A stretch of DNA of 64,000 bases from Patescibacteria group bacterium. GTDB taxonomy: Bacteria; Patescibacteriota; Patescibacteriia; Patescibacteriales; BS150m-G62. The notes under the pieces were generated by a model. The model saw only the letters and a list, made by a program, of their open reading frames with translations. It searched no databases and was not told where the DNA came from. This document shows positions 1,296 through 44,170 of this stretch, piece by piece. How positions within the stretch are numbered: position 1 is the stretch's first letter; every line of letters starts with the position of its first letter. The stretch is from assembly GCA_016784175.1 (NCBI GenBank), contig JADHVC010000002.1:330-64329 (forward strand), in the 5' to 3' direction. The position numbers and the translations under genes are program-made.

Positions 1296-2036
1296 ATGAC
1301 TATCCCTCACTACTATATTAAATTTATTGCATTCTTTGGTTGTCTATTTCTTCTCTCTATTTTGTTTTTTGTGTTTAATCGTGGTGCTAACGATGGTGTA
1401 AAGACCGTTCAGGTAAAAAATGAAGGTGCATTAACCGAAACTGCCCAAGAGAATAGTAAAAATGTTACAGTTGAGGTAAAAAATGAAGGTGCATTAACCG
1501 AAACTGCCCAAGAGAATAGTAATAATATTGTTGGAAAAAGTGAGCAAGATGTAAGCCCAGTGGTTGTAGATGAAGTTGTTACCATAAATATTGAAACTAT
1601 TAAATCAGAAGAAAATGACTATTTAACTGACGCTGAAAAAGAGGGTCTTGGTATTCGAAAAACAGTAATAGTAAAAGCATTAGAGCGTGATACTAATGGT
1701 CGTGTTTTGTCTTTTAAGATAGAAAAAGACCCTTTATTTATTGACTCCGATGAAGATGGTCTGTCAGACTCAGAAGAGGAAAATGAATTTGGTACCGATA
1801 AAAATAACTATGACACAGATGGTGATAATGCCTCCGACGGTGACGAAGTTATGAATGGCACTAATCCTCTTGTAAACGAAAATCTTCTAGACTCTGATAA
1901 CGACGGTCTTACTGATGCGCAAGAAATGGGTAAATACAAAACTGATAAAAATAATGCCGATACAGACGGAGACGGTTACTCCGATGGCGATGAAATAAAT
2001 GCTGGGTTTAATCCATTGGGCGAGGGTAAGTTATAA
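1296..2036 (+). CDS. Membrane-anchored protein with thrombospondin-type-3-like Ca-binding repeats
   Basis: N-terminal hydrophobic helix (FIAFFGCLFLLSILFFVF). 21-aa tandem duplication. Four DxDxDGxxDxxE units (DSDEDGLSDSEE, DTDGDNASDGDE, DSDNDGLTDAQE, DTDGDGYSDGDE). The stop codon TAA at 2034-2036 is the first 3 nt of a repeat-element fragment. Confidence 0.6.
   Translation: MTIPHYYIKFIAFFGCLFLLSILFFVFNRGANDGVKTVQVKNEGALTETAQENSKNVTVEVKNEGALTETAQENSNNIVGKSEQDVSPVVVDEVVTINIETIKSEENDYLTDAEKEGLGIRKTVIVKALERDTNGRVLSFKIEKDPLFIDSDEDGLSDSEEENEFGTDKNNYDTDGDNASDGDEVMNGTNPLVNENLLDSDNDGLTDAQEMGKYKTDKNNADTDGDGYSDGDEINAGFNPLGEGKL
1411..1522 (+). repeat. Intragenic tandem repeat, period 63 nt, two units
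   Basis: The 49-nt string AGGTAAAAAATGAAGGTGCATTAACCGAAACTGCCCAAGAGAATAGTAA occurs identically at 1411-1459 and 1474-1522. It encodes VKNEGALTETAQENS twice. Confidence 0.9.
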
Positions 2037-3621: not shown

Positions 3622-3630
3622 AATAAAGGC

Positions 3631-4056
3631 ATGAGAAAGTTTACCGTACCACAATTTATCGATATAGAAGACAAAATACTTGGTCCATTAACAGTGAGGC
3701 AATTTTTGATAATGTTAGTGTGTTTTATGGTTCTCTTTATCTACTATAAGGTTTTTGATTTTACTTTATTTGTTGTGGCTGGATTACCAACATTCGGAGT
3801 CTTTGGAGTTCTGGCTTTTACTAAAGTTAACGGAAGACCATTCCATTATTTTATACTTAATTTAATTCAGACCGCAAAAAAACCAGGGCTTAGGGTGTGG
3901 AGCAATGCCGACATAGATAATTTATCCGAAATCGAAGAATTTGTAAAAGAAGAGCTAGACTACATTCCAATATCTGCTACGCCAGTAAGTTCTTCAAGAT
4001 TAACCGAATTGTCACTGGTGGTAGATACTACTGGAACATATAAAGGTAAAGCATAA
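3631..4056 (+). CDS. PrgI-family / VirB3-like small membrane protein
   Basis: The N-terminus FTVPQFIDIEDKILGPLTVRQFLIMLVCFMVLFIY followed by a second hydrophobic helix is the typical PrgI-family pattern. The gene sits immediately upstream of the VirB4-like genes. Confidence 0.65.
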   Translation: MRKFTVPQFIDIEDKILGPLTVRQFLIMLVCFMVLFIYYKVFDFTLFVVAGLPTFGVFGVLAFTKVNGRPFHYFILNLIQTAKKPGLRVWSNADIDNLSEIEEFVKEELDYIPISATPVSSSRLTELSLVVDTTGTYKGKA

Positions 4057-4074
4057 ATATAAAATTATTACGAC

Positions 4075-4764: not shown

Positions 4765-4785
4765 TATATTTCATGAATAAAAAAA

Positions 4786-6723
4786 ATGATTGATCCATTT
4801 AAATTTCAACAACAAGAAGCAGAAATTGCCGAGAAAAAAAAGTTGGTCGCAATAAAAGACGAAAAGCAAGTCGCACAAGCTGTTGAGTCAACGGAAGAAC
4901 TTGTAGAAGAGGAAAAGACCTATCGGAGGGGCGCTATCTCTATTCGAGATTTAATTGCCCCAGCTAGCATAAAAATAATGCCTGACTATTTACGGTTGGG
5001 GTCTAAATACGTGAGAACTATTTTTGTGGTTAATTATCCGCGTTATATTAGTGTTGGTTGGTTTACGCCGATTGTTAATTTAAACCAGACCTTTGATATT
5101 GCCATGTACTTTTACCCAATAAAAAGTTCTGTAATATTAGACCAACTGAAGAAAAAGGCCGGAGCAATGGAGGCTCAAATTCTAGCTGATGCGGAAAAAG
5201 GTGCAGCTCGTGATCCGCTTAGAGAAACCGCACTCCGCGATATTGAAGAATTACGCGATAATCTTACCCAGGGAACAGAAAAGTTTTTTCAATTTGGGCT
5301 TTATGTAACAATATATACCGAGTCAGAAGACGAGTTAGACAAGCTTTCAGATGAAATAGAAAGCCTATTTGGATCTCGTTTAGTTTATTCAAAAAAGGTG
5401 TTTTATCAATCTGAACAGGGTTTTAACTCTACTCTTCCACTTAGCAATGATGAGCTATATATAGTATTTAACATGAATTCATCGCCGGTTGCGTCTTCTT
5501 TTCCTTTTATGTCCTGTGACCTAACAAGCGACCACGGTGTGCTTTACGGTGTAAATAGACACAATAATAGTTTGATAATTTTTGATAGGTTTAGTTTGCA
5601 AAATGCTAATACTGTTGTGTTTGCTACATCTGGTGCTGGTAAAAGTTATGCTATCAAATTGGAAGTACTAAGAAGTTTAATGTTAGGAACAGATGTAATA
5701 ATTATTGATCCAGAGTACGAATATAAACACTTGTCCGATGCAGTTGGTGGTACATATATTAATATTTCATTAGCTAGTGAAAGCAAGCTTAATCCTTTTG
5801 ATTTACCTCGAGCTATCGGTGAGGAAGCTAAAGCAGAAGACATCATTAGAAGTGCCGTCATTACAATTAAAGGTCTAATAAAATTGATGGTTGGATCATT
5901 AACTTACGAAGAAGATTCAATAGTTGATAGAGCATTATTAGAAACTTATGCAAAAAAAGATATTACTCCCGAGAGCGATCTAACTAAAGTCGAAGTTCCA
6001 ATTATGCAAGATTTTTATGATCTTTTAGACGGCATGGAAGGTGGATCAAATATTGCATTAAGATTATCAAAATACACAGAGGGTACATTTGCTGGGTTAA
6101 TTAATAATCCCACCAATGTTGAAATGGACAATCAGCTTGTATCTTTTTCAGTAAGAGACTTAGAAGACGAATTAAGACCAATTGGAATATATACAATTGT
6201 AAACTATATCTGGAATGTAGTAAGGTCGGAAAGGAAAAAACGTATTCTTGTGATTGATGAGGCATGGTGGTTAATGCAAAGTGAAGATTCTGCTAAGTTT
6301 GTTTTTGCTTTAGTGAAGCGATGCAGAAAATATTATTTAGGTGTAACAACTATAACTCAAGATGTAAACGATTTTTTAACTTCCCCTTATGGTAAGGCGA
6401 TTGTAACGAACTCAAGTTTACAAATATTATTAAAACAATCTCCAGCTGCTATCGATCTAATCCAAAAAACATTCATGCTAACAGATGGTGAGAAATACTT
6501 ATTGTTAGAGTGTGGTATAGGTGAAGGAATATTCTTTGCAGGTAATAAGCATGCTGCTATCAAGATCGTGGCTTCTTATACAGAAGATCAACTCATCACT
6601 TCTGATCCTGGGCAATTAATGGCGATAGAGGGAGAAAAGAAGGAATTCGAAGAACATCAAAAGCAACTAAGGGGGGAAGCTGGTGAAGAGGGTGCGCCTG
6701 GTGTTGAGGACCTAGATATATAA
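4786..6723 (+). CDS. virB4: VirB4/TrsE-family type IV secretion ATPase
   Basis: Walker A is FATSGAGKSYAIK (GAGKS at nt 5632-5646). Walker B is RILVIDEAWWLM (nt 6241-6276). The region upstream of the ATPase (YVRTIFVVNYPRYISVGWFTPIVNL) is typical of VirB4. Confidence 0.85.
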   Translation: MIDPFKFQQQEAEIAEKKKLVAIKDEKQVAQAVESTEELVEEEKTYRRGAISIRDLIAPASIKIMPDYLRLGSKYVRTIFVVNYPRYISVGWFTPIVNLNQTFDIAMYFYPIKSSVILDQLKKKAGAMEAQILADAEKGAARDPLRETALRDIEELRDNLTQGTEKFFQFGLYVTIYTESEDELDKLSDEIESLFGSRLVYSKKVFYQSEQGFNSTLPLSNDELYIVFNMNSSPVASSFPFMSCDLTSDHGVLYGVNRHNNSLIIFDRFSLQNANTVVFATSGAGKSYAIKLEVLRSLMLGTDVIIIDPEYEYKHLSDAVGGTYINISLASESKLNPFDLPRAIGEEAKAEDIIRSAVITIKGLIKLMVGSLTYEEDSIVDRALLETYAKKDITPESDLTKVEVPIMQDFYDLLDGMEGGSNIALRLSKYTEGTFAGLINNPTNVEMDNQLVSFSVRDLEDELRPIGIYTIVNYIWNVVRSERKKRILVIDEAWWLMQSEDSAKFVFALVKRCRKYYLGVTTITQDVNDFLTSPYGKAIVTNSSLQILLKQSPAAIDLIQKTFMLTDGEKYLLLECGIGEGIFFAGNKHAAIKIVASYTEDQLITSDPGQLMAIEGEKKEFEEHQKQLRGEAGEEGAPGVEDLDI

Positions 6724-6756
6724 TATAATAAATATAAAAGTGAAGTTTTGTGTTTT

Positions 6757-7380
6757 ATGCCTAGAAATTTAATCGCATTAATAATTATAATAGTTGGTTT
6801 TTTGATGATTATTGGGATCAGTATTTTTATATACCAAGCTTCTAAGAGTCAACCAGATCAAGCGGTTACTGTAACCATTCCAAAAGAAGTTGCAGAAAAA
6901 GTTGCCACCGATACTCCGGTAGAATCTATCACAGCGAAAAAAAAATCGGTTGTAATTGAACAAAAAAAACAGCCCGAAGTTGTTGAAAAAAGCAGTGATG
7001 AAGAAGCTTTAGAGCGAATAGCTGGTAGTTTTATTGAGCGCTACGGAACACAATCAACAGCATCAAATTACTCAAATTTAGAAGATTCTCTTGTGTATAT
7101 GAGTGAAAAAATGAAAACGGAAACAAAAAACGAGCTTATTCAATTAAGGGCGGGTGGTGATGATATTAACGATTATCAAGGAATGACAACAAGAGCTGTC
7201 TCAAAAAAAATTATCGAATACGATAAAGAAAATGGAAGCGCAAAGGTGACAATTGGGACGATTAGAGCAAAGCTAAATGGGGATGTTCAGGATTTATCCA
7301 GAAAAAAACAGAATGTTGAAGTGCGTTTCGTGAAAGAATCTGGTACATGGAAGGTTGATGGTGTTGTTTGGGCAAAATAA
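6757..7380 (+). CDS. Bitopic membrane protein, VirB8/NTF2-like candidate
   Basis: One N-terminal TM helix (LIALIIIIVGFLMIIGISIFIY), a charged linker, then a ~120-aa C-terminal globular region ending GTWKVDGVVW. The ATG at 6757 is preferred over the TTG at 6748. The fold assignment rests on topology and position only. Confidence 0.4.
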   Translation: MPRNLIALIIIIVGFLMIIGISIFIYQASKSQPDQAVTVTIPKEVAEKVATDTPVESITAKKKSVVIEQKKQPEVVEKSSDEEALERIAGSFIERYGTQSTASNYSNLEDSLVYMSEKMKTETKNELIQLRAGGDDINDYQGMTTRAVSKKIIEYDKENGSAKVTIGTIRAKLNGDVQDLSRKKQNVEVRFVKESGTWKVDGVVWAK

Positions 7381-7415
7381 TCGCAAGACTTAAATAAAAG
7401 TAACATTAAATAATT

Positions 7416-8093
7416 ATGCAAAAGCGATATAAATTTGAAGGGGCAAGAAATATAAACTATTTATTTATTGCACAACTAATTTTGCTTGCGGTTATCACTT
7501 TTGTTTCTTCTAGGGTTATTATAAACAATGCTTTAGCTGATGAGGTTAATTTAGCAGAAAAGCTTAGCGGGCAAATATTAATTAATACAGAAAATGATGG
7601 CGAGCTTTGGTATGTAGATCCTACCACAAACAAAAGATTGTACCTAGATAGCGCTGATTTTGCCTATACTCTTTTAAGATCACGGGCAATTAGCACAAGT
7701 GCTCAGTCCATTAACGGATTACCAATGGGTCTTCTAAATGTAACTGATACTGATACAGATAGTGATGGTATTAGTGATAGGCTTGAAAAGATAATTGGTG
7801 GTAATGTTTACAGTGTTGATACTGACAATGATGGATTTGATGATAAAAATGAGGTATTAAGTAATTACAATTTAAATGGGAGCGGAAAGAAGATGTTAGA
7901 TAGTACTTTAATCGACAGCTTTCGAGGATATTTTATTTTGAATGTAGATGATAGTGATTCTGTTTGGTATATAAGTCCACGAGATTCTCGCAGGTACTTT
8001 ATTGGGGGTCCGCTAGATTTTAGCGCTGTTGTTAAGCAATTAGCTATTGGTATTAATCTTCAAGATCTAGGCGAAATTGAGAGTGAGGAATAG
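7416..8093 (+). CDS. Membrane-anchored or secreted protein with TSP3-like repeats and two WY-x-P...Y(L/F) modules
   Basis: N-terminal TM helix or signal sequence (LFIAQLILLAVITFVSS). DTDSDGISD and DTDNDGFDD motifs. Modules GELWYVDPTTNKRLYL and DSVWYISPRDSRRYFIGGP. Confidence 0.55.
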   Translation: MQKRYKFEGARNINYLFIAQLILLAVITFVSSRVIINNALADEVNLAEKLSGQILINTENDGELWYVDPTTNKRLYLDSADFAYTLLRSRAISTSAQSINGLPMGLLNVTDTDTDSDGISDRLEKIIGGNVYSVDTDNDGFDDKNEVLSNYNLNGSGKKMLDSTLIDSFRGYFILNVDDSDSVWYISPRDSRRYFIGGPLDFSAVVKQLAIGINLQDLGEIESEE

Positions 8094-8097
8094 TTTA

Positions 8098-8859
8098 ATG
8101 AAGATGACGGAAGGGTGGTCGGTAATAAAAATTAAAAACTTCATTCTCGACTTGCTTTTCCCGATAGAATGTTTTGGTTGTGGGAAAGAAGATATTTGGT
8201 TGTGCAAGCAATGTCACAAAAAAATAGCCTTCAATATAGATCAAAGTTGCTTAAAGTGTGGCGATGCTAACAATTTTGGTGAATTTTGTAAAAATTGTAA
8301 AAAGGATTCTTTTTTAGATGGTGTTCTAGTAGCTAGTTTTTATAAAGATGAAATTACAAAAAATTTAATTAAAAGCTTGAAATATTATTTTGCCAAAGAC
8401 ATCGCAAAAATATTAGGCGAATTTATAAATCTTTTTTTAAGAAACCAGTTGAATAAAGCTTGGCTAATCAAGCAAAGTAAAGATATTCCGCAATTCTTTA
8501 AAGACTTTAATGATGCTTTGTTAATTCCGGTTCCACTACATCCGAGGCGAGAGAGATGGCGCGGTTTTAATCAGTCTTTAAAGCTAGCTCAAGAAGTTAT
8601 TAAGCATTATCAATTTGAACTTTGTGATAATAAGCTAAAAAGAATAATACATAAAAAAGCCCAAGCTAAATTGCAAAATAGTCAACGGGAAGAAAATATT
8701 AATGGTTGCTTTGAGTGGCAAGGTCAAAATTTGGAAGGTAGGAACGTTATTATAATTGATGATGTGGTTACAACCGGCTCAACTCTACAAGAAATTGCTC
8801 GAGTTTTAAAAGAAAATGGCTCCGGCGAAGTATGGGGTTTGGCAGTAGCAAAGGGGTAA
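8098..8859 (+). CDS. comFC: ComF-family protein (ComFC, phosphoribosyltransferase-type competence protein)
   Basis: N-terminal 4-Cys zinc finger (CFGCGK...CKQCH; CLKCG...CKNC). C-terminal PRTase motif VIIIDDVVTTGSTL. The ATG at 8098, 4 nt after the upstream stop, is preferred over the TTG at 8077. Confidence 0.8.
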   Translation: MKMTEGWSVIKIKNFILDLLFPIECFGCGKEDIWLCKQCHKKIAFNIDQSCLKCGDANNFGEFCKNCKKDSFLDGVLVASFYKDEITKNLIKSLKYYFAKDIAKILGEFINLFLRNQLNKAWLIKQSKDIPQFFKDFNDALLIPVPLHPRRERWRGFNQSLKLAQEVIKHYQFELCDNKLKRIIHKKAQAKLQNSQREENINGCFEWQGQNLEGRNVIIIDDVVTTGSTLQEIARVLKENGSGEVWGLAVAKG

Positions 8860-20300: not shown

Positions 20301-23300
20301 TTACAGTATTTAGCGCACCGCTAGCTAAAGTAACATCAACGCCACTTGTATTGGCACTTAAGTTAAGGTTGGCTGGACTAGCTGGATAATCGTCAGCATC
20401 AGTTCTTTCGATTTCACCATAGCTCGCTGTCCATGTATCGATTCTATATATACCAGCTGGTGCTTTTATGGAATACATACCAGAGCTATTCGTTTGACCA
20501 ATATATTCTTCTCCGCTTAATTCGCCTCCTGCAGTATATTTCAATGCTCTAACTGGAGTGTTTGCTTGAACTTCATTATTGACAGTGATAGTTCCGCTAA
20601 TAGTATAGTAAGTTAGTGTTGTATCTGGAGTAATATTTAATGTTTGATTCTCACCATTAATAGTTACAGTTTCAGTTGTCGATAATCCAAACTCTGGAAT
20701 ATTAGCTTCTACGCTCCAAGTGCCGTTATCAACATAAAGAATGTAATTACCACTTGAATCTGTGATAGTTTTTGCCTGTCCTAGCCCATCTTGTTTGGTT
20801 GCCCAAATTGGAGCTAGAATAACCGCGTTAGTACCGTCTGTAACTTTACCAGAAATGGTGTAGCTTGGCTTGATAATTTTAAATATTAATTTATTTGCAG
20901 CCGTAATTAATGCATTATTTTCATAAACATCAGCCGTTGCATTACCATCTACATTGTTAATATCATTAGCTTTAACTTTAACATTTTTGTTAGTCTTGAT
21001 TGGTAAGCCAGCTTTAAATACTCCAACCGAATAATCACCATCGTTAGCTAATTTTAAAATAAATTTACCATCAGTGTCCGTTGTTGTATAAGACCCTTGA
21101 GTTGTCCCGTTTGGTTGATAAGCATTAACCTGAGCGTTGCTTATTCCAACTCCTGCCCCATCAAGTACGAAACCGACAATCTCTTTAGAAGTGCTTGTAA
21201 GTGTAAGATTAAAGCTTTGAGCGCTAGATCCGTCTGACTCTACATTAATTGGACGAGGTGCAACCCAATTAGGCATACTTACTTTTTCGATTGATGTTAT
21301 TTTTTCGCGCGCTGGCAAGACTTGTATTTTCCAAATGCCAGCCTTAAGATATAGCACTTCTGCAATTGCGCCTCCCGTACCAGTTACTTTCTTTGTGATA
21401 TTTAGTTCAGGCGAATTTGCAACGATATCAACATTCTCGCCATTTGGGATGCCTGTAATATTAACGGTAATTGCTGCAACTGAACCTGCATCAGCTCGTT
21501 TGAATGTAATATTCTTTGGGTTTACACCTGCACTAATAGTGATTGGTTCAGGAGCACTTATGCCAATATAATCTGCGTTGCTACTATCAAGAGTGATAGA
21601 TTGATCTGTAAATATTTGATAATTGCTAAGTGGAAGGCTAGAGAAAGAATAATTTCCAGTACCGTCATTAGCTAGACTGACTATAGTTTCCAATGGACCA
21701 GTTGTTGGTGAATCCAAATAAATTTTTATAGTGTCGCTACCGTCAGTGTCGGCAGGATTAATCCCTAAGATATTTCCACTTAAACTAGCACTACCAGCTG
21801 GTTTAATAAAGAAGGGGAGTCCAGCAATCGTTTCGCTCAAGTAACCATTTTCATCTAAGATCTTCATGTCGACAGAATATCCGCCAGTGTCAGGACCTCT
21901 AGGAATAGACGAATTAACAATTCCAGCTAAGTCAAAGTGTAAATAATCCTTAATTGGAGTAGTTCCAGTCACGCCAAGGTCAACCGTAATTATGTTAGCA
22001 CTTGTATCAATCGTAACACCGTCATTATTTGCCCCGCCAGAAGTTTCTGCTTCAGTTGAGAAGCTGACAGTCCCACTATTAACTTCATTTAAGTCATTAT
22101 TTGCAGGTGAATATACATCCTTTTTAGCGTTATTAATATTAAACCCTTTTGGAAAAGTTAATAATATTTTGTAATTGTCTTTAATTTGTTTATTTGTAGG
22201 AAGGTTAACAAAATAAGTTGTAATTTGACTAGCTAGGGCGTTCATAGGGATAGCTCCCGCTTTCATTATTCCCATGTCAGACATAGAGAGAGTTGCTCCT
22301 TCGCCGCTACTATTAGGAACGAGTTCGCCTTTAGTGCTGCTGCTAGACTGGATAGGTGCTTGAAACGAGGTTGTTCCGCTTAATATATTGCCCGAAAGAT
22401 CAGTCGCCCCACTACCATCTACATTAGCGCTTGCCATATCAACATAGATATTTTTACCGCTAACATTTGCAGTCTGTAGTCCCAAATTTTTTATTACAAC
22501 TGTGTTGCTAACTGCATCATAAGTAAAGCTAGAATTAGTAGTGCTAAGGTCAATATTTGTGCCAGATCCGACTACAGTTTCAGCATCACCCCATCTAAGT
22601 TTATAATTTGTTAGGTTAAGCACTGATGATGACCATTTTTGTGTGTTTGCAGCTGTTGATGCATTCATTGGTTCAGAAAATGTAATAGCTACACCGTTGT
22701 CATCTGCATTGCTAAACATTATCTTTGGCGCAATTGTATCTAGCGTAGAGTTTGTTTGAAAGTAAACCACAGTACTGCTAGCTAAATAGTTACCAACCAT
22801 ATCGGCTAGACCATTCGAGCCGCCAATAATTTTTAAAGCATAATTTGCATTTGGGGCCAATACTTGACTTGGAATAAAATTCAATGAATAGGTCTCCGCA
22901 TTGTAGTTAATATTACCACTAATTTGTGATGTTCCTCTTAGTAAAGAAATTGTATTTGAATTAATTGTTGTTGGATTAATGCCTTCTGAAAATTGAAGAA
23001 TCAGTGAACCAGGATTAATCGATATATTTGTAGCGTTGTTGGCTGGCCAAGTGCCAAGAATGGTAGGTCTGGTACTATCAACAACAGAAGTTGTATTTAC
23101 TTTAAAGCGACTTGCAAACACAACGCTATTCGCAGTATTTCTGCTAATATTAGGATCACCCATTGGTATTCCACTAGCGCTTTTTAATGCCCCGGTTGCT
23201 ATTATTTTGTAACTACCTGCTATTAAATTCGAACTTGGTGTAATTGTTATATTTTTCTTTGTGCTATCAATACTAACTGTTGAGCTAACAAGAGTCTCTA

Positions 23301-29098: not shown

Positions 29099-29671
29099 AT
29101 GGCTTTTCAAAAACAACTCGGGAAAATTATAGACGCTGGCAAGGAGAAAATATTGCTAATCAGGGTGAAAAACAAGGACAAAAGTGCTTTTGTAGAAGCC
29201 TATGATAAGTATGTCGATCAAGTTTATCGATTTATCTATTTTAAAGTTTCTGACAAGGAAGAGGTCAAGGACTTAACATCTCTGACATTTTTGAAGGCTT
29301 GGGAGTATATCCAAGATAGAGGTATTAATGAAGATCGTAGTATTAAGGCATTGTTCTACAAGATCGCGAGAAATGTCGTTATAGACTACTACAGGGCTCA
29401 AAGTAAAAGACAGGTTACATCCATAGAGCTCTTAGGTGAGATCCGATCAGATGTAGATATAATCACAAACCTAGAGAATAAACTGGAGATCGAAAGAGTT
29501 TCTGGAAAAATGCTTCAATTAAAAAGTGAATATCGCGAAGTTTTAATGTTCTATTATGTTGATGAACTTTCAACCAGAGAGATCGCAAAAATTTTAGGTA
29601 AGACAAGTGGAAATATAAGAGTTACATTGCATAGAGCTTTAAAAACGTTTAAAGAAATCGTAAATGAATAA
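29099..29671 (+). CDS. ECF-type sigma-70 family RNA polymerase sigma factor
   Basis: Region 2 (FVEAYDKYVDQVYRFIYFKVSDKEEVKDLTSLTFLKAW) and region 4 HTH (LSTREIAKILGKTSGNIRVTLHRALKTF). Confidence 0.85.
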   Translation: MAFQKQLGKIIDAGKEKILLIRVKNKDKSAFVEAYDKYVDQVYRFIYFKVSDKEEVKDLTSLTFLKAWEYIQDRGINEDRSIKALFYKIARNVVIDYYRAQSKRQVTSIELLGEIRSDVDIITNLENKLEIERVSGKMLQLKSEYREVLMFYYVDELSTREIAKILGKTSGNIRVTLHRALKTFKEIVNE

Positions 29672-30647
29672 TGAAATATATAAACAAATAAATATTCTTA
29701 AAGATATTAAGCCAAGTGATGATTGGAAAAGTAAAAATAGAGAATTACTTTTAAGTCAAATAAGTAGTGCAAATATCGCAGACATAAAAGAATTAAGCTT
29801 AGTTAACGCATTGTTTAAGACGATTAGTGGTGAGTTGCGTTTATTTGTAGCTCAACCAACTTTGTTTGTGACCATACTAGCTATACTAATGATTGGTCTT
29901 CCGATAGTAAGTGCAGAGTTCGTTAACGATTCAAAGCCAGGCGATTCTCTCTATATAGCAAAATTGGTTAGTGAAGACGCTCAACTTGCTGTTACTTTTG
30001 ATGAAAGAAAGAAAGCAAAACTTGGTCTAGGTTTTGCAGAAAATAGAACAAGAGAGATTACTAAAGTGTTAGTAGAATTTAACGAAAATGAGCAAGACAA
30101 AGACCAAAAAGTAGAAAAATTAACCAATGACTTTAAAGAAGAGATAGCAAAAATTAAAACATACGAAGTAGCAAGTAACATAAAAGCAAAAGTAAGAAAA
30201 GAAAAGGCAATTGTTGTAGAAGATAATAAACAGGTAATTATTCAAAGTAGCATCGATGAAACCTTAACAAAAGAAGAAGATACAAAGGTATTTAGCGCTT
30301 ATCTTGGTAGATCAACTGCTGGAATTCAGCTATCTCAAGATGAGGTAAAAAAAGAATTTCATAAAGTATTAAGTGATGCAGCCGACTTGATTGACTCCAA
30401 GGACTATGTAGGAACATTAAATAAGCTAAAAGAAGCCAATCAGATTATCTTAAAAGTTACTGATGATGAGAGAATCCAAGAGGAAGTGGTAGAGAAACCT
30501 CAGGAAATACTAGAGATTGTTGAGACACTTCAAGCAGACAATATTACCAATAAAGAAGGATTAGCATCTAGTACGTTGAATAGCACGGTAGAGCCAGTGG
30601 AAAATAAAATTATCGAGGATAATAATAAAGATAAAGAAGAAAAATAA
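29664..30647 (+). CDS. DUF5667-like membrane protein, candidate anti-sigma factor
   Basis: Overlaps the sigma gene by 8 nt (ATGAATAA). One TM helix (LFVTILAILMIGLPIV). PGDSLYIAKLVSEDAQLAVTFDERKKAKLGLGFAENRTREI matches my recollection of DUF5667. Charged helical C-terminus. Confidence 0.5.
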   Translation: MNNEIYKQINILKDIKPSDDWKSKNRELLLSQISSANIADIKELSLVNALFKTISGELRLFVAQPTLFVTILAILMIGLPIVSAEFVNDSKPGDSLYIAKLVSEDAQLAVTFDERKKAKLGLGFAENRTREITKVLVEFNENEQDKDQKVEKLTNDFKEEIAKIKTYEVASNIKAKVRKEKAIVVEDNKQVIIQSSIDETLTKEEDTKVFSAYLGRSTAGIQLSQDEVKKEFHKVLSDAADLIDSKDYVGTLNKLKEANQIILKVTDDERIQEEVVEKPQEILEIVETLQADNITNKEGLASSTLNSTVEPVENKIIEDNNKDKEEK

Positions 30648-31799: not shown

Positions 31800-34700
31800 A
31801 TGAGAAAATTACGCAAAACATTCATCTCAGGCGTGATGTTCACCACAATCTTTGCATTAAGTGGTATTGCTGCAGTTAGTCCTGCACAAGCTGCTGCATC
31901 TGCTGGTGACCTAATCAAGATGGACGGTTTAGATACTGTTTATTATCTTGGCGCTGACGGTAAGAGATATGTATTCCCAAATGCACAAACTTATTTTAGT
32001 TGGTATCCTGATTTTTCAAGCGTTGTAACTGTTCCTCAATCAGAGCTAGAGTCATACAGACTTGGTTCTAATGTAACAATGAGAGCTGGTACAAAATTAG
32101 TTAAAATTACTACAGATCCAATGGTATATGCTGTTGAACCAGGTGGTAATTTAAGATCTATTGTTAGTGAAGCTAATGCAATAGCTCTATATGGAGCAGA
32201 TTGGGCAAAAAGAGTAATCGATGTGCCAGATTCATTTTTCACTAACTACAAAGTATTAGCTGATTTAGCTGTAGGTAAATATCCTGCTGGTCAGTTAGTA
32301 AAGAGTGGTGATGCTACTTATTACTTCGACGGTACAGATTACCGTGCGGTAGCAAGTGATGCAGCTATGTCTGCAAATCGTTTTCAAGCTTCAAATGTAG
32401 TTACTACAACTATGGCTATTACAGCTGGTGGTACTGCACTTGCAGGCGCTGAAGCTACTTTAATCGACACTTCTGCTAGTGGTGCTACAACTGGTATTAC
32501 TCCAGGCGTAGGCACAGGTGCTACTGTATCTGTAGCTAGTGATACTCCTTACAGTTCTACTATTCCTAGTAGTTCAGCTAGAGTAACTTTCACTAAATTT
32601 AACATTGCAGCTGCTAGTGATGGCGACGTAACTGTTAATGAGATTACAGTAAGACGAACAGGTGTTGGTGCTTACAACGAATTAAGTAGAGTTTACCTAT
32701 ATGATGGTATGACAAGATTAAGTAACGGTAGAACTATCAATTCTGATAGTCACAGTACTACTTTTTCAGGCCTAGGTTTGAAAGTAGCTGCTGGTACTGT
32801 TAAAACAATCACTATTGCTGCAGATACAGCTAGTGGTTCAGCTGGTAACCATTCTTTGGGTATCAATGCTGCTTCTGATATTAAGACAAATGGTGCTTCT
32901 GTTTCTGGTTCATTTCCAGTTAAAGGTAATACTATGAGTCTTTCATCTGTTACTGCTGGTACAGTTGTGCTTGCAGGCAATGGTACATTATCAAACCCAA
33001 CAATCGGTGATGCTAATGTTTCAGTTGCTCAATTTAAGTTAACAGCTGCTTCAGAGGACTTAATGTTTGGAGACATTACTCTAAAACAAGATGGTACAAT
33101 CGACACATCTTTATTGAGTAATTTTACCTTAATGCAAGGTACAACTAATATTCCTGTTACAACTACTATTAACGGAAGAAATGTAATGGTTAAATTAGAC
33201 ACTCCATTTAAGTTAGTTGACGGTTCTGGTAAAATCTTTACTCTAAAAGCTAACGTAAGCAGTGATACAGAAGTTGGTAAAACTATTGTATTCTATGTAA
33301 ATAATGTAGCTGATGTTAATACACAAAGTATTAATTACGGAGTAGGTGTTACAGCAACAATCACAGCTTATGATGCTGCCGGTGATTCACAAACATTAAC
33401 ATTACAAGGTGGTGGAATTACAATTTCTAACCTAAGCTCACCTTCAAGTGATGTTAAAGTAAATTCAACAGAAGTTGAGTTAACTCGAGTTGCTGTAAAA
33501 GCGTCTTCTGATAGTGCAGAAATTCAAAAAATGACTTTAAGAATCGCTACAACTAAAGCAACTTCTGGTGGTGATGATTATGGTACTTTCAGAGATATGG
33601 CTGATGATGCTGATTATGACAGCGGTACTGACACACTTTTACTTAAAAATATTAAGTTAAAGGATGCAGACACTGGTGCTACTATTGGTTCAGCTAAAGC
33701 TATTACTGATGCTGATAACTTCAGTGCAGCTAATGATGTTGATGCAAGTTTAGATTTTGTGTTCGATGATTATTTCACAATTGCAAAGGGTGCAACAAGA
33801 AATATTATCGCTGTAGCTGATATTGACACAACACAAATTTCTAGTGTAGTTTACGCTACAACAATGCAATTTGGTTCTAGTGACTTTACAGCTAAAGATT
33901 CACAAGATAATACTATAAGTGATGTTGTTCCTGCTACTGATATTGCTGGTTACAACAGAACAACAAGAACTTCATCATTAACAATTTCAAGAGCTTCAAG
34001 CCCAGAAACAAGAACTGTGGTTAAAGGTTCTTCAGTTGATGCTTTGGGTATAATATTTGCAACTGGTTCTGGAACAGGTAATGATGTTAAGCTTTCAGGT
34101 TTAACACTTGATATCTTCGTTGATGCTGACACTACTTTAGCAAGTGACTTTGCATTAAACACAGCAACTGGTGATGCAGATGGCGATACAACAACTATTC
34201 TTGCTAATGCTTTAGTGCAAGACGTAAGTCTATATGTTGGTGCTGACAAAATTGCTGGTCCTGTAAGTGTTGACACTAACGGTAGAGCAATCTTTACTTC
34301 AAGTAAATTTGTAAATGGTTACTACAATCTTCCAGCTGGCGCAAGCAAAACAGTCGTTGTTCGTGCAACTGCATCTGGCAATGCTCCTTATGGTGCTGCT
34401 GATGATAGATTTGCATTCACATTCGATGCTGCTGATGTTACAGCAGAAGACTCAGAAGGTAGTGTAACTCCAACTGTTACAGGTACAGATCTTAACGGTC
34501 TTGCTACACCTGGTGTTTATGTCCAAGTTACTGGTAACGGTACTATCACTGTTGCTGCTGACTCTGGCAAACCTGCTTCTTCTGTAGTTATCGCTGGTCG
34601 TTCAACAGAACAAGAGTTAACAAGAGTGTTGCTTTCAACAACAAAAGAAGATTTCTTAGTTGACGAAATTACATTCGCAGTTAACGAAGCTGGTTCTTAT

Positions 34701-35573
34701 GATGATGTAGAATACCTAAGACTATATGACACTTCAGGTAATGCATTATCAGAAAATGTTGGTCTAAACGCAAGTGGCTTAGCTAATTTTACTGGTTTAA
34801 CAATCAGTGTTCCAAAATTAGATAACAAGGTTTTAGTTGTTAAGGGTAAGATTAAAGCTGTTGGTGAAAGAACAACAGCTACAGATGGTACTGCTGGAAC
34901 TGGTGCTGACACTGGTGATGGTATTACTATCAACATTGACACAACAGCTGGCAACTTCAATGCTACAGGTGCTGCATCTGGTATTGTTGATACTACTGCT
35001 GATGCTGCTGTTGCAAATACCATGGTTGTTAGAAAGTCTCTTCCAACTGTTGTTATGCAATCATTACCAAGCACAACATTGGCTAACGCTTCAAAGACAA
35101 TTAGTAAATTCAGTATTACAGCTGATGCTAATGGAGATATCGTATTCAAGGGCGTTCAACCTATAACAACTTTAGGTGGCGCTTCAGCTATTACAGCTGG
35201 TTCAGTTTACATGTATGATGTAACTGGTTCAAACGAAACTTTACTAAACGCAGTTGGTGTTAATGCAAGTGCATTAATCGAAATTGACAATGCTAGTATT
35301 GTTACGATTGCTGCTGGTACTACAAGAACATTCGAAATCAGAGCTACTATTACTGGTTCTGCTGCAGGTGATTCTGTAGAAACTCAACTAGTTAAGGATA
35401 GCGCTGCATTAAGTTCTACAACAGAAACAGCTGCTGACGCAGTTGCTGATGCAGCAAATAACTTCATTTGGTCAGACAAATCTGCTGATACAAATGCTGT
35501 TACTTCAACTGAGTGGACAAATAGTTATGTCTTCCCAAGTTGGCCAACTACAATCTCAGTATTATCAAGATAA
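31800..35573 (+). CDS. S-layer-like major surface protein (1257 aa, Cys-free)
   Basis: Signal peptide ending PAQAAAS. No cysteine at all; rich in T/A/S/G/V/D. Recurring beta-sandwich-like units (VTFTKFNIAAASDGDVTVNEITV, VSVAQFKLTAASEDLMFGDITL, VELTRVAVKASSDSAEIQKMTL, QELTRVLLSTTKEDFLVDEITF). Strong bias to GGT/GCT/ACT/GTT codons. A strong terminator follows. Confidence 0.7.
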   Translation: MRKLRKTFISGVMFTTIFALSGIAAVSPAQAAASAGDLIKMDGLDTVYYLGADGKRYVFPNAQTYFSWYPDFSSVVTVPQSELESYRLGSNVTMRAGTKLVKITTDPMVYAVEPGGNLRSIVSEANAIALYGADWAKRVIDVPDSFFTNYKVLADLAVGKYPAGQLVKSGDATYYFDGTDYRAVASDAAMSANRFQASNVVTTTMAITAGGTALAGAEATLIDTSASGATTGITPGVGTGATVSVASDTPYSSTIPSSSARVTFTKFNIAAASDGDVTVNEITVRRTGVGAYNELSRVYLYDGMTRLSNGRTINSDSHSTTFSGLGLKVAAGTVKTITIAADTASGSAGNHSLGINAASDIKTNGASVSGSFPVKGNTMSLSSVTAGTVVLAGNGTLSNPTIGDANVSVAQFKLTAASEDLMFGDITLKQDGTIDTSLLSNFTLMQGTTNIPVTTTINGRNVMVKLDTPFKLVDGSGKIFTLKANVSSDTEVGKTIVFYVNNVADVNTQSINYGVGVTATITAYDAAGDSQTLTLQGGGITISNLSSPSSDVKVNSTEVELTRVAVKASSDSAEIQKMTLRIATTKATSGGDDYGTFRDMADDADYDSGTDTLLLKNIKLKDADTGATIGSAKAITDADNFSAANDVDASLDFVFDDYFTIAKGATRNIIAVADIDTTQISSVVYATTMQFGSSDFTAKDSQDNTISDVVPATDIAGYNRTTRTSSLTISRASSPETRTVVKGSSVDALGIIFATGSGTGNDVKLSGLTLDIFVDADTTLASDFALNTATGDADGDTTTILANALVQDVSLYVGADKIAGPVSVDTNGRAIFTSSKFVNGYYNLPAGASKTVVVRATASGNAPYGAADDRFAFTFDAADVTAEDSEGSVTPTVTGTDLNGLATPGVYVQVTGNGTITVAADSGKPASSVVIAGRSTEQELTRVLLSTTKEDFLVDEITFAVNEAGSYDDVEYLRLYDTSGNALSENVGLNASGLANFTGLTISVPKLDNKVLVVKGKIKAVGERTTATDGTAGTGADTGDGITINIDTTAGNFNATGAASGIVDTTADAAVANTMVVRKSLPTVVMQSLPSTTLANASKTISKFSITADANGDIVFKGVQPITTLGGASAITAGSVYMYDVTGSNETLLNAVGVNASALIEIDNASIVTIAAGTTRTFEIRATITGSAAGDSVETQLVKDSAALSSTTETAADAVADAANNFIWSDKSADTNAVTSTEWTNSYVFPSWPTTISVLSR

Positions 35574-35603
35574 TATCTCGATAAGCTAGATTGAACTAGG
35601 CAA

Positions 35604-35641
35604 CCCCCTCTCCTTAAAGCAAGGAGAGGGGGTTTTGGTTT
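35604..35641 (+). terminator. Strong rho-independent terminator
   Basis: CCCCCTCTCCTT (35604-35615) pairs with AAGGAGAGGGGG (35621-35632), followed by TTTTGGTTT. Confidence 0.9.
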
Positions 35642-35700: not shown

Positions 35701-37950
35701 ATGAAATACCCCAGGCTATTATTTTGTTTTTTATCGTTATTTTTGTTTGTGCCATTTAGTGCTAGTGCCGTTGATTATGATTACCATATAGATAGTATTA
35801 CTGTTAGTGGCGACCCAACAATCAATAAGGATGTTGATGTGAAAGTTAAAGTTTATAATTATTCAACAGAACCATTGATCACAATGGATGTTGTAAACGA
35901 TTATTCTATAAATTTTGATAACTTTCGTTTATCTAGCGTAACTTTACCCACTATTTCAAGCACTAGTCCAATTGATGTGCTTGAATATTTTGAGTATATA
36001 ATCACAGGTCGTTTTATCGACTTTGATGGATCAAAGCTAATTTTTAATTTTAATACGCAAAATATTCCCTTTGAAGCGAATAGAGCTAACAATACCTATT
36101 CGGAAATAATAAATGTTATTTCGGCTCAGGATACGTCTGTTAATGAGATCGAAGTTATTCCTGAAAAGCCTGCTGTGGACGAAATAGTTATAATTAAAGT
36201 GAAAATCAAGAATGGAGGCGATATTGCCTTATCTTCAACTTTTGGTGTTAATGATTTTTTGCGAAATTTCCAGGACTTTGAAGAAACAGATCCTTTTACA
36301 TTTTCTACCTTTAGGGACAATATCTTCAATAAAGATCAAGAATTTATATATACTTATCGTGGAAAGTTTAAATCTATTGGAACAAAAGAGCTCAAATTTA
36401 CAATTGATGCGACAGATAGCATAAAGGAAATAAATGAAACAAATAATACTTTAGCAAACAATATTGAGGTAATCGGGAAAGAATCACTCGATGTTACTCT
36501 TCACCAAATAAAGTTACCAGACAAGGATATATTGTATAATACTGTTTTAGACATTAAGGCATCAATAAGGAATGGGGGCTCGGTTGCACTAAGTGATCCA
36601 ACAGGTATCTCTATAGATAGTCTTAAATATTCTATCCCCGGGTTTGTGGTAAGTTCAATATCTCAAGACAGCTATCCTACTGCTAGTGATCCCTTTAAAC
36701 CAACAGATATTTTTAACTATGTGTTTAGGGGGTGGTTTAATCAAACTGGCAATATTGATGTAAGTTTTATGATAGATAAGTATGACTATTTGGATGAGTC
36801 AGATGAAGTTAACAACCTTGCTACATCAACTTTAACAGTATATGTAAACCAAGAAGCAGCAGATGCTATTGTGATCTCTGATGTTTCAGTTAATCCGATA
36901 AGCTCAACATCGGTAGAAATATTGTGGAAAACGGACAGAGAAGCTACTTCAGAAGTTCGTTACAACAAATATAGATTTGGTTCATTTGATAGGTATAAGA
37001 TTCCAGAAAATGTACCAAACGATATATGGCCAAATAACACATCAGCAACTATCGACCATGCGGTAACGATTGTTGAGCTTGACAGCAATGCTAGTTACGA
37101 CTTTGAAGTTAATAGCACTCGAGGTAGTGTAAAAACATTTAGTCCAGTTGGTCACTTCGAGACGCCACCAACCGATAATGTATCTATCAATAATGTTAAT
37201 ATTTACCCAAATAAAGATGACAAGTCAGCAACAATTACCTGGAAAACAAGTTATCTAGCTGATAGCAATGTGTATTACTCAGAAGTTGGAAAGAACGACT
37301 ATATTTTTGTTGGTACAGCCGATCCAACCATGAATCATGCAATTAAATTGCAAAATTTAAAGCCTGTAGAATATAACTATTATGTCGAATCAAAGAACTC
37401 TAAAATTGCCTCTTCTACAAAATCAGCCATTTATAGTTTTTCCATGGTCTCTCTAGTTAAAGAGATAATTATTGCTCCAGAGTCAGAAAAACCAGCCATG
37501 AAGATCATAAATGAGCAAGAAAAAGATGTATTATTAGTGACTAATGGAAGTTTATTCCAAAAACTTAAAGGTCGCATTCTTCTTAAAGTAGAAGACGAGG
37601 GTGAAGCGTGGTATGTTAGCCCAGACGATGCTAAAAAGTATTACTTAGGTCGCCCAAGAGATGCTTTTAATGTAATGCGAACGTTTGGGGTGGGTATAAC
37701 TAATGCAAATTTGCAAAAGATCCAAGTGGGGGACAGATATACTCCAAAAATGGCTAGAGATGGTCTTGATTACAACTTCACCAAAAAGAATAGTGGCAAG
37801 ATATTTATAGCTGTTGAAGCAAATGGTGAAGCTTGGTATGTTAACCCTATCGACTTAAAAAGATATTATCTAGGTCGTCCCCAGGATGCTTTTCAGATAA
37901 TGCGCGAACTAAGCACAGGTATAACTAACGAAGACTTTATAAGGTTGTAG
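35701..37950 (+). CDS. Secreted multidomain protein (CARDB-like, FN3-like and two GEAWY modules)
   Basis: Signal peptide (FLFVPFSASA). Repeated CARDB-like ends (ANNTYSEIINV, ETNNTLANNIEV, EVNNLATSTLTV). Two FN3-like units (ISSTSVEILWKTDREATSEVRY; KSATITWKTSYLADSNVYY). C-terminal GEAWYVSPDDAKKYYLGRPRDAF and GEAWYVNPIDLKRYYLGRPQDAF. Confidence 0.7.
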   Translation: MKYPRLLFCFLSLFLFVPFSASAVDYDYHIDSITVSGDPTINKDVDVKVKVYNYSTEPLITMDVVNDYSINFDNFRLSSVTLPTISSTSPIDVLEYFEYIITGRFIDFDGSKLIFNFNTQNIPFEANRANNTYSEIINVISAQDTSVNEIEVIPEKPAVDEIVIIKVKIKNGGDIALSSTFGVNDFLRNFQDFEETDPFTFSTFRDNIFNKDQEFIYTYRGKFKSIGTKELKFTIDATDSIKEINETNNTLANNIEVIGKESLDVTLHQIKLPDKDILYNTVLDIKASIRNGGSVALSDPTGISIDSLKYSIPGFVVSSISQDSYPTASDPFKPTDIFNYVFRGWFNQTGNIDVSFMIDKYDYLDESDEVNNLATSTLTVYVNQEAADAIVISDVSVNPISSTSVEILWKTDREATSEVRYNKYRFGSFDRYKIPENVPNDIWPNNTSATIDHAVTIVELDSNASYDFEVNSTRGSVKTFSPVGHFETPPTDNVSINNVNIYPNKDDKSATITWKTSYLADSNVYYSEVGKNDYIFVGTADPTMNHAIKLQNLKPVEYNYYVESKNSKIASSTKSAIYSFSMVSLVKEIIIAPESEKPAMKIINEQEKDVLLVTNGSLFQKLKGRILLKVEDEGEAWYVSPDDAKKYYLGRPRDAFNVMRTFGVGITNANLQKIQVGDRYTPKMARDGLDYNFTKKNSGKIFIAVEANGEAWYVNPIDLKRYYLGRPQDAFQIMRELSTGITNEDFIRL

Positions 37951-38130
37951 AAATTATAAAAAATCTCAAGATAAAAAAGTGGTTTTAAATGCCGCTTTTT
38001 TATTTTTTTAGGTTAAGTTGTTAATAGTTAAGTTATTAAAATTTGTTTACTTTGAGTTTTATGTGTAGTAATATGTAATTTGTAAGAGTTAATTGTGGGG
38101 TATCTTTCGTTCTTTAAAAGGAGTTTTTTT

Positions 38131-42877: not shown

Positions 42878-44170
42878 ATGAATATATCAATAAAAATTCT
42901 ATTAATCTGTCTAATGTTTTTCACAGGAGGTGTTGCTCATGCTGCAATACCTTCCGATCTTAACCCTACTTCATCGCTTGGTGAATATACTGGATCGCTT
43001 TCGCTTAAGGCAACGAGAGTATCTGATTTCTCTTATGGTTTGGACCTCTCAACTGGTCAAAAGGATGTTGAGTTGCTCAAATTTAATCTTGAGATAAAAG
43101 GATCCGAGGGCGCTGGTTTGACTTGGCTTGGTCTTCGTCAGGTAGGTTTTGAAAATAAATTTACTAATATTCGAGCATACTTTGGTAATCAAAAATTAGG
43201 ACGAAGTATCGATAATTCAGAGTTCTTGGGTGAGGTTATTGACTTTTATAGTTTGGATCAGAGCTTTAGTAAAAATACAAAAAATAGAGTAAGAATAGTT
43301 GGCGATGTTTTAAGTACGGCCTCTCAGGGTCCTGCTACATTAGCTTTTGCTGGTGCCGATTTTAAGGGTACTCAAACTGATTGGGTTAGATCGATAGCAG
43401 AAATAAGTAATACTATTGAATCTAGGATAATAACCACTGATAATACCAAGTTTATAGATCCGACTTCTCCCGAAGACGAATTTGTAGATGAATTTTATCC
43501 TCCGGTAAATCCAACTGATCCTGTCTTACCACCATCAAATCTAACTGGTACTATTTTATCGTCAGTTGGCGAGGCTAAGTGTGATTCAAGTTATCCTACT
43601 GTTGGCGTTAGCGTAAAAAATACAAATTTGTATAGTAAATTAAAAGGCAGGATTATCCTAAAAGTGGAGGAAAACGGTGAGGCATTTTATGTCCACCCAA
43701 CAAAAAAATATATGTATTATCTATGTCGTCCAAGCCATGCTTTCAGGATAATGCGCGAGCAAAGTACTGGTATAACCTCAGCTAGTTTAGAAAAAATGCC
43801 TTATGGTTTAAGCGATCTAAGTGGAGTAGATTCAGATGGAGATGGACTCCCAGACATATTTGAGGATGCTATAGGTACAAATAGAAATTTAAGTAATACA
43901 GATGGGGAAGGTAGCACCGATAGGGTAGATATATTAAATGGTCTTGATCCAAAAAAAAATGGCGCACTAAATACAAATACAAGCAATTCGGCACGGCATA
44001 ATGGTAAAATATTCTTACAAGTTCAGGACCATGGTGAAGCTTGGTATATTTATCCAATTGACTCAATTAGGTACTACTTGGGTCGACCAAGTCATGCCTT
44101 AACAATCATGCGCAGTATGGGGTTGGGCATAAATGATAGTGATTTTAATAAAATGTATTATGACAATTAA
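42878..44170 (+). CDS. Secreted protein with a TSP3-like motif and two GEAWY modules
   Basis: Signal peptide (FFTGGVAHA). DSDGDGLPDIFE. GEAFYVHPTKKYMYYLCRPSHAFRIMRE and GEAWYIYPIDSIRYYLGRPSHALTIMRS. Confidence 0.65.
   Translation: MNISIKILLICLMFFTGGVAHAAIPSDLNPTSSLGEYTGSLSLKATRVSDFSYGLDLSTGQKDVELLKFNLEIKGSEGAGLTWLGLRQVGFENKFTNIRAYFGNQKLGRSIDNSEFLGEVIDFYSLDQSFSKNTKNRVRIVGDVLSTASQGPATLAFAGADFKGTQTDWVRSIAEISNTIESRIITTDNTKFIDPTSPEDEFVDEFYPPVNPTDPVLPPSNLTGTILSSVGEAKCDSSYPTVGVSVKNTNLYSKLKGRIILKVEENGEAFYVHPTKKYMYYLCRPSHAFRIMREQSTGITSASLEKMPYGLSDLSGVDSDGDGLPDIFEDAIGTNRNLSNTDGEGSTDRVDILNGLDPKKNGALNTNTSNSARHNGKIFLQVQDHGEAWYIYPIDSIRYYLGRPSHALTIMRSMGLGINDSDFNKMYYDN

Follow-up and report, generated by a model that had tools for sequence, protein, structure and literature searches.

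In a 64,000-nucleotide stretch of DNA from a Patescibacteria group bacterium (assembly GCA_016784175.1, contig JADHVC010000002.1, positions 330 to 64,329 of the forward strand; hereafter the window), three open reading frames (ORFs), which we call A, B and C, each contain two copies of a module of about 55 to 60 amino acids (Table 1). We found this module to be a previously unnamed extracytoplasmic family that is lineage-specific and has no detectable relative in sequence or structure. Its functional unit is the pair, in which two modules of about 55 residues pack as one compact domain. Judging from the architecture of the carriers, the module may be a lineage-specific domain for non-covalent retention in the cell envelope, functionally like the SLH and CWB2 domains but unrelated to them. 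This is the reading that we tentatively prefer, and we hold it with slightly less than even confidence.

To avoid circularity in assessing the copies, we trained a profile hidden Markov model (HMM) on 35 modules taken from metagenomic proteins that are unrelated, excluding the sequences of the window, and searched 802 six-frame segments of the window with it. All six copies were found, with independent E-values (i-E) from 1.4e-30 to 3e-11, and the best segment other than a copy gave E 1.8. The similarity among the six copies is far beyond chance. This confirmed the six copies proposed for A, B and C in the initial annotation, and the boundaries given by a second HMM, made from these six copies, differ by no more than about 12 nt from those proposed there. 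The copies share 19-60% amino-acid identity. Because their identity at third codon positions is only 0.17-0.47, they are old duplications maintained by protein-level selection, not DNA repeats.

The N-terminal export or anchoring signals that had been ascribed to every carrier were also present. A and B have classical signal peptides; that of A has a hydrophobic core at residues 6-20 (Kyte-Doolittle hydropathy 2.43) and a cleavage site between SASA and VD. C has an N-terminal anchor, with the basic stretch MQKRYKFEGAR ahead of its hydrophobic segment. No transmembrane-like segment was found beyond the N-terminus of A, B or C. The passenger region of A matched the Pfam families CARDB (7.1e-10, two stretches), Pur_ac_phosph_N (7.3e-09, two stretches) and fn3 (1.3e-4), and the region of B ahead of its modules has no Pfam assignment. 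In GenBank the window proteins with locus tags ISS03_00645, ISS03_00725, ISS03_00730 and ISS03_00755 are each annotated as hypothetical.

To estimate the size of the family we searched 1.84 billion cluster representatives (clusters at 50% identity) with a profile of the module. With E-value limits of 1e-3, 1e-10 and 1e-30, respectively, 3,692, 3,406 and 2,539 clusters matched. The matching proteins in large collections were all unnamed or named for their other domains. In 450 non-redundant modules, taken as the best-scoring members of the family, 27 of 58 positions are at least 80% identical and many of these are polar or aromatic; the conserved positions include Q12, E14, E18, W20, Y21, R29, Y30, R34, D37, F39, R43 and N51. 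The consensus of these modules agrees with the one first written down from the window. The net charge of the module is near neutral (+1.1 +/- 2.4).

Carriers came from sources named Falkowbacteria, Kuenenbacteria, Uhrbacteria and Parcubacteria, as well as Doudnabacteria and Jacksonbacteria among the genome contigs. All credibly labelled sources were Patescibacteria lineages with the exception of one archaeal contig. About 24 of the 50 genome loci (within L003-L046), which are third-party-annotation metagenome bins, are titled “uncultured Gammaproteobacteria bacterium”. We take these titles to be wrong: the five such loci tested for synteny (L004, L014, L028, L041 and L046) show synteny and 45-80% identity over at least one flanking gene with Falkowbacteria, Uhrbacteria or Patescibacteria loci. 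On these data the module family is large and apparently restricted to Patescibacteria. The sole archaeal label belongs to P0071, a 241-aa protein with a pair and a lamin-tail domain on a 5.5-kb contig labelled “Candidatus Thermoplasmatota archaeon”, and it is probably a binning error.

Several observations identify the pair as the unit. Exactly two modules were present in 143 of the 146 best representatives and in all 57 carriers from 50 independently fetched genome loci; both samples favor two-copy proteins, since the count draws on best-scoring matches, and this weakens the argument. The E-value tiers are a less biased estimate of copy number. One module alone does not exceed about 111 bits, and an E-value of 1e-30 in the representative library requires about 121 bits (an estimate obtained by scaling), so at least 69% of the clusters (2,539 of 3,692) hold more than one module. 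Modules had been said to come always in pairs, and this is true of the window and of nearly all relatives. A minority of proteins have a single module, namely the M23 fusions P0130, P0132 and P0133 and the protein found at L053 and L055, and these may dimerize.

The first and second modules of a pair also differ as subtypes. HMMs for the two positions, with half the pairs used for training, correctly placed 231 of the 260 modules that had been held out, although these were not phylogenetically independent of the training half. In the window, the first modules of A and B were called as first-position and the second modules of A, B and C as second-position. Module 1 of A scored 111.1 bits with the position-1 HMM against 107.2 with the position-2 HMM, and module 2 scored 100.1 bits with the position-2 HMM against 96.2 with the position-1 HMM.

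The linker between the modules has a bimodal length distribution. In the 143 two-module representatives it is either 0-20 aa or a tight 59-61 aa, and 84 of the 143 linkers contain a DxDxDG motif like that of TSP3 repeats. The linker of A belongs to the short class and those of B and C to the long class. Both long linkers contain DxDxDGxxDxxE motifs and score just below the Pfam TSP3_bac (PF18884) cut-off of 25 bits (21.1 bits for B and 22.2 bits for C). Among 111 carriers, 36 have a homologous insert that scores well above this cut-off (the best with E 5.7e-12), which makes TSP3_bac the commonest co-occurring Pfam family. The modules had been described as often lying next to TSP3-like motifs; the motifs are indeed there, and they form a fixed-length insert between the two halves rather than lying simply nearby. 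The fixed length suggests that the chain must return so that the halves can pack together.

The structure predicted by AlphaFold2 for the pair of A (37528-37947, 140 residues) was confident, with a predicted local distance difference test score (pLDDT) of 88.9 and a predicted template modeling score (pTM) of 0.82 from an alignment of 76 sequences; the linker block had a lower pLDDT of 68. Such a pTM across the whole 140-residue model implies that the two halves are arranged in a defined way relative to each other. A single module gave a pLDDT of 62.4 and a pTM of 0.41 from an alignment of 41 sequences, a contrast that is confounded by alignment depth (76 versus 41 rows) and thus weakens the case for the pair as the folding unit. 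The predicted secondary structure of each half is strand-strand-strand-helix-strand-helix.

The module had not been assigned to a named family in the initial annotation, and our comparisons with Pfam-A, NCBIfam, PDB profiles and, by Foldseek, the structures in PDB and BFVD likewise gave nothing significant. Isolated modules had no match among Pfam-A models (up to 2025) at E<=1, and an NCBIfam scan of the carriers returned no family for the module. In A, B and C, the Pfam matches were confined to the passenger domains and to the TSP3 insert, apart from sub-threshold matches to a hairpin. The families SLH (PF00395), CWB2 (PF04122), LysM, Choline_bind_1, PG_binding_1 and PepSY were not matched by isolated modules (E<=1) or by the three carriers, and they were absent from the 25 commonest families matched by 76 pairs at E<=10. 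At this permissive threshold the 76 pairs gave only sub-threshold local matches centered on the GxWY hairpin, to SH3_15 (in 14 of the 76, with a best E of 0.0039; its cut-off is 24 bits), WW, Spin/Ssty, Pro_Al_protease and Arm-DNA-bind_1. The module is not mentioned in searchable papers, as judged from literature searches by motif string and by topic.

Structural searches had the same outcome. With the pair model, the best Foldseek match in PDB had E 0.55 (TM-score <=0.26) and the best in BFVD, which contains predicted viral structures, had E 0.28. With the single-module model (pLDDT 62), the top five PDB matches were to the N-terminal arm-binding domain of lambda integrase (E 0.68-2, TM-score 0.36-0.41). 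We rejected this domain (PF09003), together with the MerR wing, as a relative: PF09003 matched 5 of the 76 pairs with a best E of 0.037, and the Foldseek matches were not significant. The lambda integrase arm-binding domain and AP2-like folds have the same order of three strands and then a helix as each half-domain, and the resemblance serves only as a description of topology. The lambda integrase family is cytoplasmic and DNA-binding whereas the module is exported, near-neutral and paired. BmrR (E 0.2 with the module) and spindlin-3 (E 0.22 with the pair), the best sequence-profile matches in PDB, were discarded as chance local matches. The alpha-lytic protease prodomain (PF02983) was rejected as well. 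Its match in C reached 12.9 bits over 13 residues against a cut-off of 23.4 bits, its matches in 7 of the 76 pairs were all sub-threshold (best E 2.4e-4), the passengers are not S1 proteases and no pro-region structure was matched by Foldseek.

The carriers are overwhelmingly predicted to be exported. By a crude hydrophobicity rule, 136 of the 146 representatives have an N-terminal signal peptide or transmembrane segment; the M23 fusions without a signal peptide are an exception. The pair is terminal in 137 of the 146. In 122 it directly follows the signal peptide or anchor, its first residue lying at about position 26-35, and behind it comes a variable region whose median length is 187 residues. 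The C-terminal placement that had been described for A and B holds for these two proteins and is the minority arrangement in the family, in which the pair lies at the extreme C-terminus of 15 of the 146.

The passengers are diverse. We found 45 different Pfam families in 111 carriers, among them CAP, M23, subtilase S8, C25, GH10, staphylococcal nuclease (SNase), NAGPA, transglutaminase and cupredoxin/plastocyanin, as well as PA14, cohesin, lamin-tail (LTD), Gmad2, fn3, beta-propellers, DJ-1, PEBP and YHYH. A large number of carriers match no Pfam family at all. Some carriers have no catalytic part: C consists of a transmembrane anchor and the module cassette only, and elsewhere we found a signal peptide with SH3b and the pair, or PG_binding_1 with the cassette. 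These proteins look like tethers between two envelope components. A single neighborhood may encode several carriers. There are three in the 64-kb window and tandem carriers at L018 (three), L016 (two) and L032 (two), and in some cases several loci come from the same metagenome-assembled genome.

We favor envelope retention because the pair is a terminal tandem domain of exported proteins, is far more conserved than its unrelated passengers and occurs several times per genome region, sometimes alone on a membrane anchor or together with another wall-binding domain. The position of A and B in an envelope-glycan and S-layer-like region is in line with this reading. By analogy, this pattern matches that of the swappable non-covalent anchors SLH, CWB2, SH3b and LysM, and the swappable anchoring domains SLH, CWB2 and SH3 offer a framework for terminal, passenger-diverse modules of this kind (bioRxiv 10.1101/2025.04.02.646754). 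The pair would act as a promiscuous “address” at one end of Sec-exported proteins, mostly behind the signal peptide and in fewer cases at the C-terminus. Its modules are joined directly (0-20 aa, as in A) or through the insert of fixed length (59-61 aa, as in B and C), in which TSP3-type calcium-binding motifs are usual. The pair would bind a conserved envelope component, either peptidoglycan or a wall-associated polymer, in cells that have a wall and no outer membrane, and enzymes, binding proteins and small tether proteins would thereby be kept between the membrane and the S-layer. The diversity of the passengers is consistent with what is expected of an anchor, and the strong conservation across lineages appears to point to a ligand that is itself conserved across the phylum.

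The likeness to known anchors has limits. Like SLH and CWB2, the pair consists of tandem copies placed as one unit at the N- or C-terminus of Sec-exported proteins, is fused to many unrelated domains, occurs in several carriers per genome and is more conserved than the passengers. Unlike them, it has two copies rather than three and shares no sequence similarity with either. SLH domains are helical and CWB2 domains are Rossmann-like, whereas the pair is predicted to be mixed beta-alpha. In addition, the neighborhoods of module carriers revealed no gene for making a cognate polymer (CsaB or TagA, for example). SH3b (PF08239), LysM and PG_binding_1 resemble the module in being small and in targeting exported enzymes, including M23 peptidases, to the wall. 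Lysostaphin-type enzymes combine an M23 peptidase with SH3b, a layout that is mirrored by the proteins with M23 and a single module. The module differs from SH3b and PG_binding_1 in that only sub-threshold matches to an SH3-like hairpin were obtained, and the co-occurrence of SH3b or PG_binding_1 with the pair in one protein suggests a different ligand or role. TSP3 repeats (PF18884), known from surface proteins of the CglD or MtsD type, have the same DxDxDGxxDxxE motifs as the insert of 59-61 aa. They explain the insert and not the module, and the NCBIfam matches to CglD/MtsD reached 11-19 bits against cut-offs of 400-800.

Some results weigh against retention at the wall. If the module binds the wall, phage lysins are predicted to borrow it. 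Scans of viral contigs yielded essentially no carriers and tblastn against GenBank phages yielded none, so that this prediction was unsupported. The missing phage carriers are weak negative evidence, because phages of these bacteria are barely represented in the collections searched. The endolysin-like protein P0133 (locus L051, 7633-8328) lies in a methylase/GmrSD/Fic defense or mobile island with no obvious prophage. No ligand-synthesis partner was indicated among 51 carrier neighborhoods. Finally, were peptidoglycan the ligand, an SH3b or PG_binding_1 domain alongside the pair would be partly redundant. The earlier proposal of a shared targeting or wall-binding domain is a reasonable one that fits the terminal site, the diverse passengers and the several carriers per region, and it found no support in the neighboring genes or in phage lysins.

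A few phage-related observations were made in the course of these searches. A degenerate DNA pattern for GEAWYVNP found, in viral contigs, one real carrier on two IMG/VR contigs classed as uncultivated virus genomes and two chance matches. The carrier is an identical 209-aa protein in both (L053 5831-6460, minus strand, and L055 7995-8624, plus strand) with a signal peptide, one module and a C-terminal region without assignment. P0130, P0132 and P0133 (about 230 aa) have an N-terminal M23 domain, a single C-terminal module and no signal peptide, an endolysin-like layout, and the M23 part of proteins of this type matches endolysins in PHROGs. The modules themselves gave weak matches to small PHROGs families (71-138 aa) of unknown function, with most of the module aligned: phrog_13523, phrog_27159, phrog_12883, phrog_5854 and phrog_19209. 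Of these, phrog_27159 matched P0063 with E 2.9e-6 and phrog_13523 matched 11 of the 76 pairs with a best E of 5.5e-5. These families may be remote phage relatives or may share a common small fold.

The initial annotation had also proposed that the S-layer-like ORF (31800..35573), immediately upstream of A, begins with a distant seventh copy. This did not hold up, as the segment scored -1.4 bits with the HMM of external modules. A comparison of the module with the S-layer-like N-terminal domain by hhalign, using the whole domain and its internal repeats, gave a probability of 13% (E 0.002). The N-terminal region of about 180 aa (window 31890-32444) is nevertheless a conserved domain in its own right. 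It has no Pfam match, is 60-68% identical to relatives in two other genomes (L022 1494-2033 and L035 9334-9837), and contains three internal repeats that each start with xAGxL[IV]K and show a strand-strand-strand-helix pattern resembling that of the module. The remainder of the protein diverges between genomes, unlike this domain, which is a candidate for anchoring the S-layer in these bacteria. It could be speculated that the paired module is a new fold and a general surface-anchoring system of much of Patescibacteria, with the role that SLH and CWB2 have in Firmicutes, defining most of the retained surface proteome, and that the S-layer-like triple repeat is a very diverged relative, so that one mechanism would attach the S-layer and its accessory enzymes to a single envelope component. 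We regard this wider proposal as possible and doubtful.

An alternative to retention at the wall is that the pair is a pseudo-dimer that docks its carriers on a scaffold of protein, for instance on the S-layer lattice from its inner side or on a surface partner, or that dimerizes them. The pair would then resemble cohesin-dockerin or lattice-binding domains and would bind no wall polymer. We consider this unlikely. The two modules do pack as one unit, single-module proteins could homodimerize and one carrier has a cohesin domain. The S-layer-like N-terminus has repeats of similar strand-strand-strand-helix pattern, their homology being unproven. Gene A also lies directly downstream of the S-layer-like gene; however, a strong terminator-like hairpin (35602-35634, 14-bp stem with eight G-C pairs, followed by a T-tract) separates the two, and because of it they are probably transcribed separately. 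A second strong hairpin of this type (37968-38006, 16-bp stem) lies downstream of A, and the 3-kb stretch around A contains four terminator-like sites against 1.3 +/- 1.3 in shuffled sequences. Homologs of the S-layer-like gene occur near carriers in only 4 of 51 loci.

The wider neighborhoods speak against docking in the same way. ORF clustering over the 51 carrier neighborhoods revealed no conserved operon partner, and no family was present in more than five of them. The most recurrent neighbor families, at up to 5 of 51 loci, were GT4, a DUF4012 family and the S-layer-like family. Such scarce recurring neighbors are what a promiscuously used module would show, and fit less well with a component of a fixed system. 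In addition, the module is extremely conserved across divergent lineages while the rest of the S-layer-like protein diverges fast.

Another possibility is that the pair faces outward as an adhesin, whose target would be a host or prey surface, DNA outside the cell or polysaccharide of the matrix, and that it brings scavenging enzymes to this target. Patescibacteria are largely episymbiotic scavengers, and the passengers include nucleases, proteases and glycosidases; the cupredoxin, DJ-1, PEBP, CAP and many other passengers, however, are not enzymes of attack or scavenging. The weak topological likeness of the single module to the DNA-binding arm domain of lambda integrase and the sub-threshold Arm-DNA-bind_1 matches in 5 of the 76 pairs could be taken to suggest DNA as the target, but the fold similarity comes from a low-confidence model and is not significant, and the near-zero net charge argues against the binding of DNA or of polyanions in general. 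C adjoins genes of type IV secretion and ComFC type, which is in keeping with this reading. On the other hand, high conservation over lineages that have different hosts argues for a ligand on the cell itself. Taken together, these data make an outward adhesin quite unlikely.

It is very improbable that the pair is an intramolecular chaperone, pro-domain or export-competence domain that is later removed, as in the two-lobed pro region of alpha-lytic protease or in PepSY: its usual site between signal peptide and passenger and the sub-threshold prodomain matches in seven pairs and in C are in keeping with this, but those matches are limited to the 13-residue GxWYV hairpin, solved pro-region structures were not retrieved by Foldseek, A, B and roughly 10% of relatives have the pair at the C-terminus, there are proteins made up of nothing but the pair or of the pair with another binding domain, and the passengers are unrelated, whereas pro-domains co-evolve with one type of passenger.

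Patescibacteria, which live attached to other cells and have mostly not been cultured, account for a large part of bacterial diversity. Surface proteins play a central role in the biology of these bacteria and are mostly annotated as “hypothetical”. Since one signature marks thousands of exported proteins (3,692 clusters), the retained surface proteome could be listed for any such genome, and the module family merits a database entry, which would end the unannotated status of its carriers. The pair is a compact, confidently predicted two-lobed domain without a detectable structural relative, well suited to structural and binding studies, and could serve as a fusion tag or probe to find the envelope component that it binds. 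If envelope retention is correct, the few classes of wall-anchoring domain in bacteria would be joined by a new one that is lineage-specific; binding to host cells or to a protein lattice instead would be equally informative on episymbiosis. In either case the module is relevant to the surface organization of ultra-small symbiotic bacteria.

Table 1. Coordinates in the window of the three carrier proteins, their parts and the genes clustered with C.
Feature	Position	Strand	Details
Protein A	35701..37950	+	749 aa
A signal peptide, residues 1-23	35701..35769	+	MKYPRLLFCFLSLFLFVPFSASA then VD; AxA-type cleavage site by inspection
A passenger region	35770..37551	+	CARDB and fn3 / purple-acid-phosphatase-N-like domains (Pfam)
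A module 1	37552..37731	+	first-position subtype; i-E 1.4e-30 with HMM of external modules
A inter-module linker	37732..37776	+	15 aa, short class; HMM boundaries
A module 2	37777..37947	+	second-position subtype, reaches C-terminus; i-E 3e-29 with HMM of external modules
Protein B	42878..44170	+	430 aa
B signal peptide, residues 1-22	42878..42943	+	..FFTGGVAHA then AI; by inspection
B module 1	43628..43807	+	position-1 subtype; i-E 3.7e-23 with HMM of external modules
B inter-module insert	43808..43987	+	60 aa, TSP3-like Ca-binding motif DSDGDGLPDIFE at 43829-43864
B module 2	43988..44167	+	position-2 subtype, reaches C-terminus; i-E 2.4e-26 with HMM of external modules
Protein C	7416..8093	+	225 aa
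C N-terminal hydrophobic anchor, residues 16-30	7461..7505	+	LFIAQLILLAVITFV; Kyte-Doolittle 2.81 over 15 residues
C module 1	7551..7730	+	diverged; i-E 5.5e-14 with HMM of external modules
C inter-module insert	7731..7907	+	59 aa, two TSP3-like motifs at 7752-7787 and 7818-7853
C module 2	7908..8087	+	diverged, stops one residue short of C-terminus; i-E 3e-11 with HMM of external modules
TSP3-repeat protein	1296..2036		cluster ending with C (window 1296-8859)
PrgI family protein	3631..4056		cluster ending with C
VirB4/TraG-like ATPase	4786..6723		cluster ending with C
ComFC-like gene	8077..8859		after C; 17-nt overlap of its longest ORF with the end of C

The carriers of the window lie in two different settings. 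C closes a cluster resembling a type IV secretion system, with a PrgI family protein, a VirB4/TraG-like ATPase and several unassigned ORFs. A and B lie inside a long envelope-glycan and S-layer-like region, whose genes encode an extracytoplasmic function (ECF) sigma factor, a DUF5667 protein, a methyltransferase, the S-layer-like protein, an O-antigen-ligase-like TPR protein, several GT4 proteins, an epimerase and a DUF4012 protein. The ECF-type sigma factor gene (29099..29671) overlaps that of the DUF5667 protein (29664..30647) just upstream of the methyltransferase and S-layer-like genes, and the two may act together in regulating the envelope region. Between the two settings, an ORF on the minus strand (17341-26046) encodes 2,901 aa without the module and is presumably a huge surface protein, with five CarboxypepD_reg domains, three Big_5 Ig-like domains and one lamin-tail domain.

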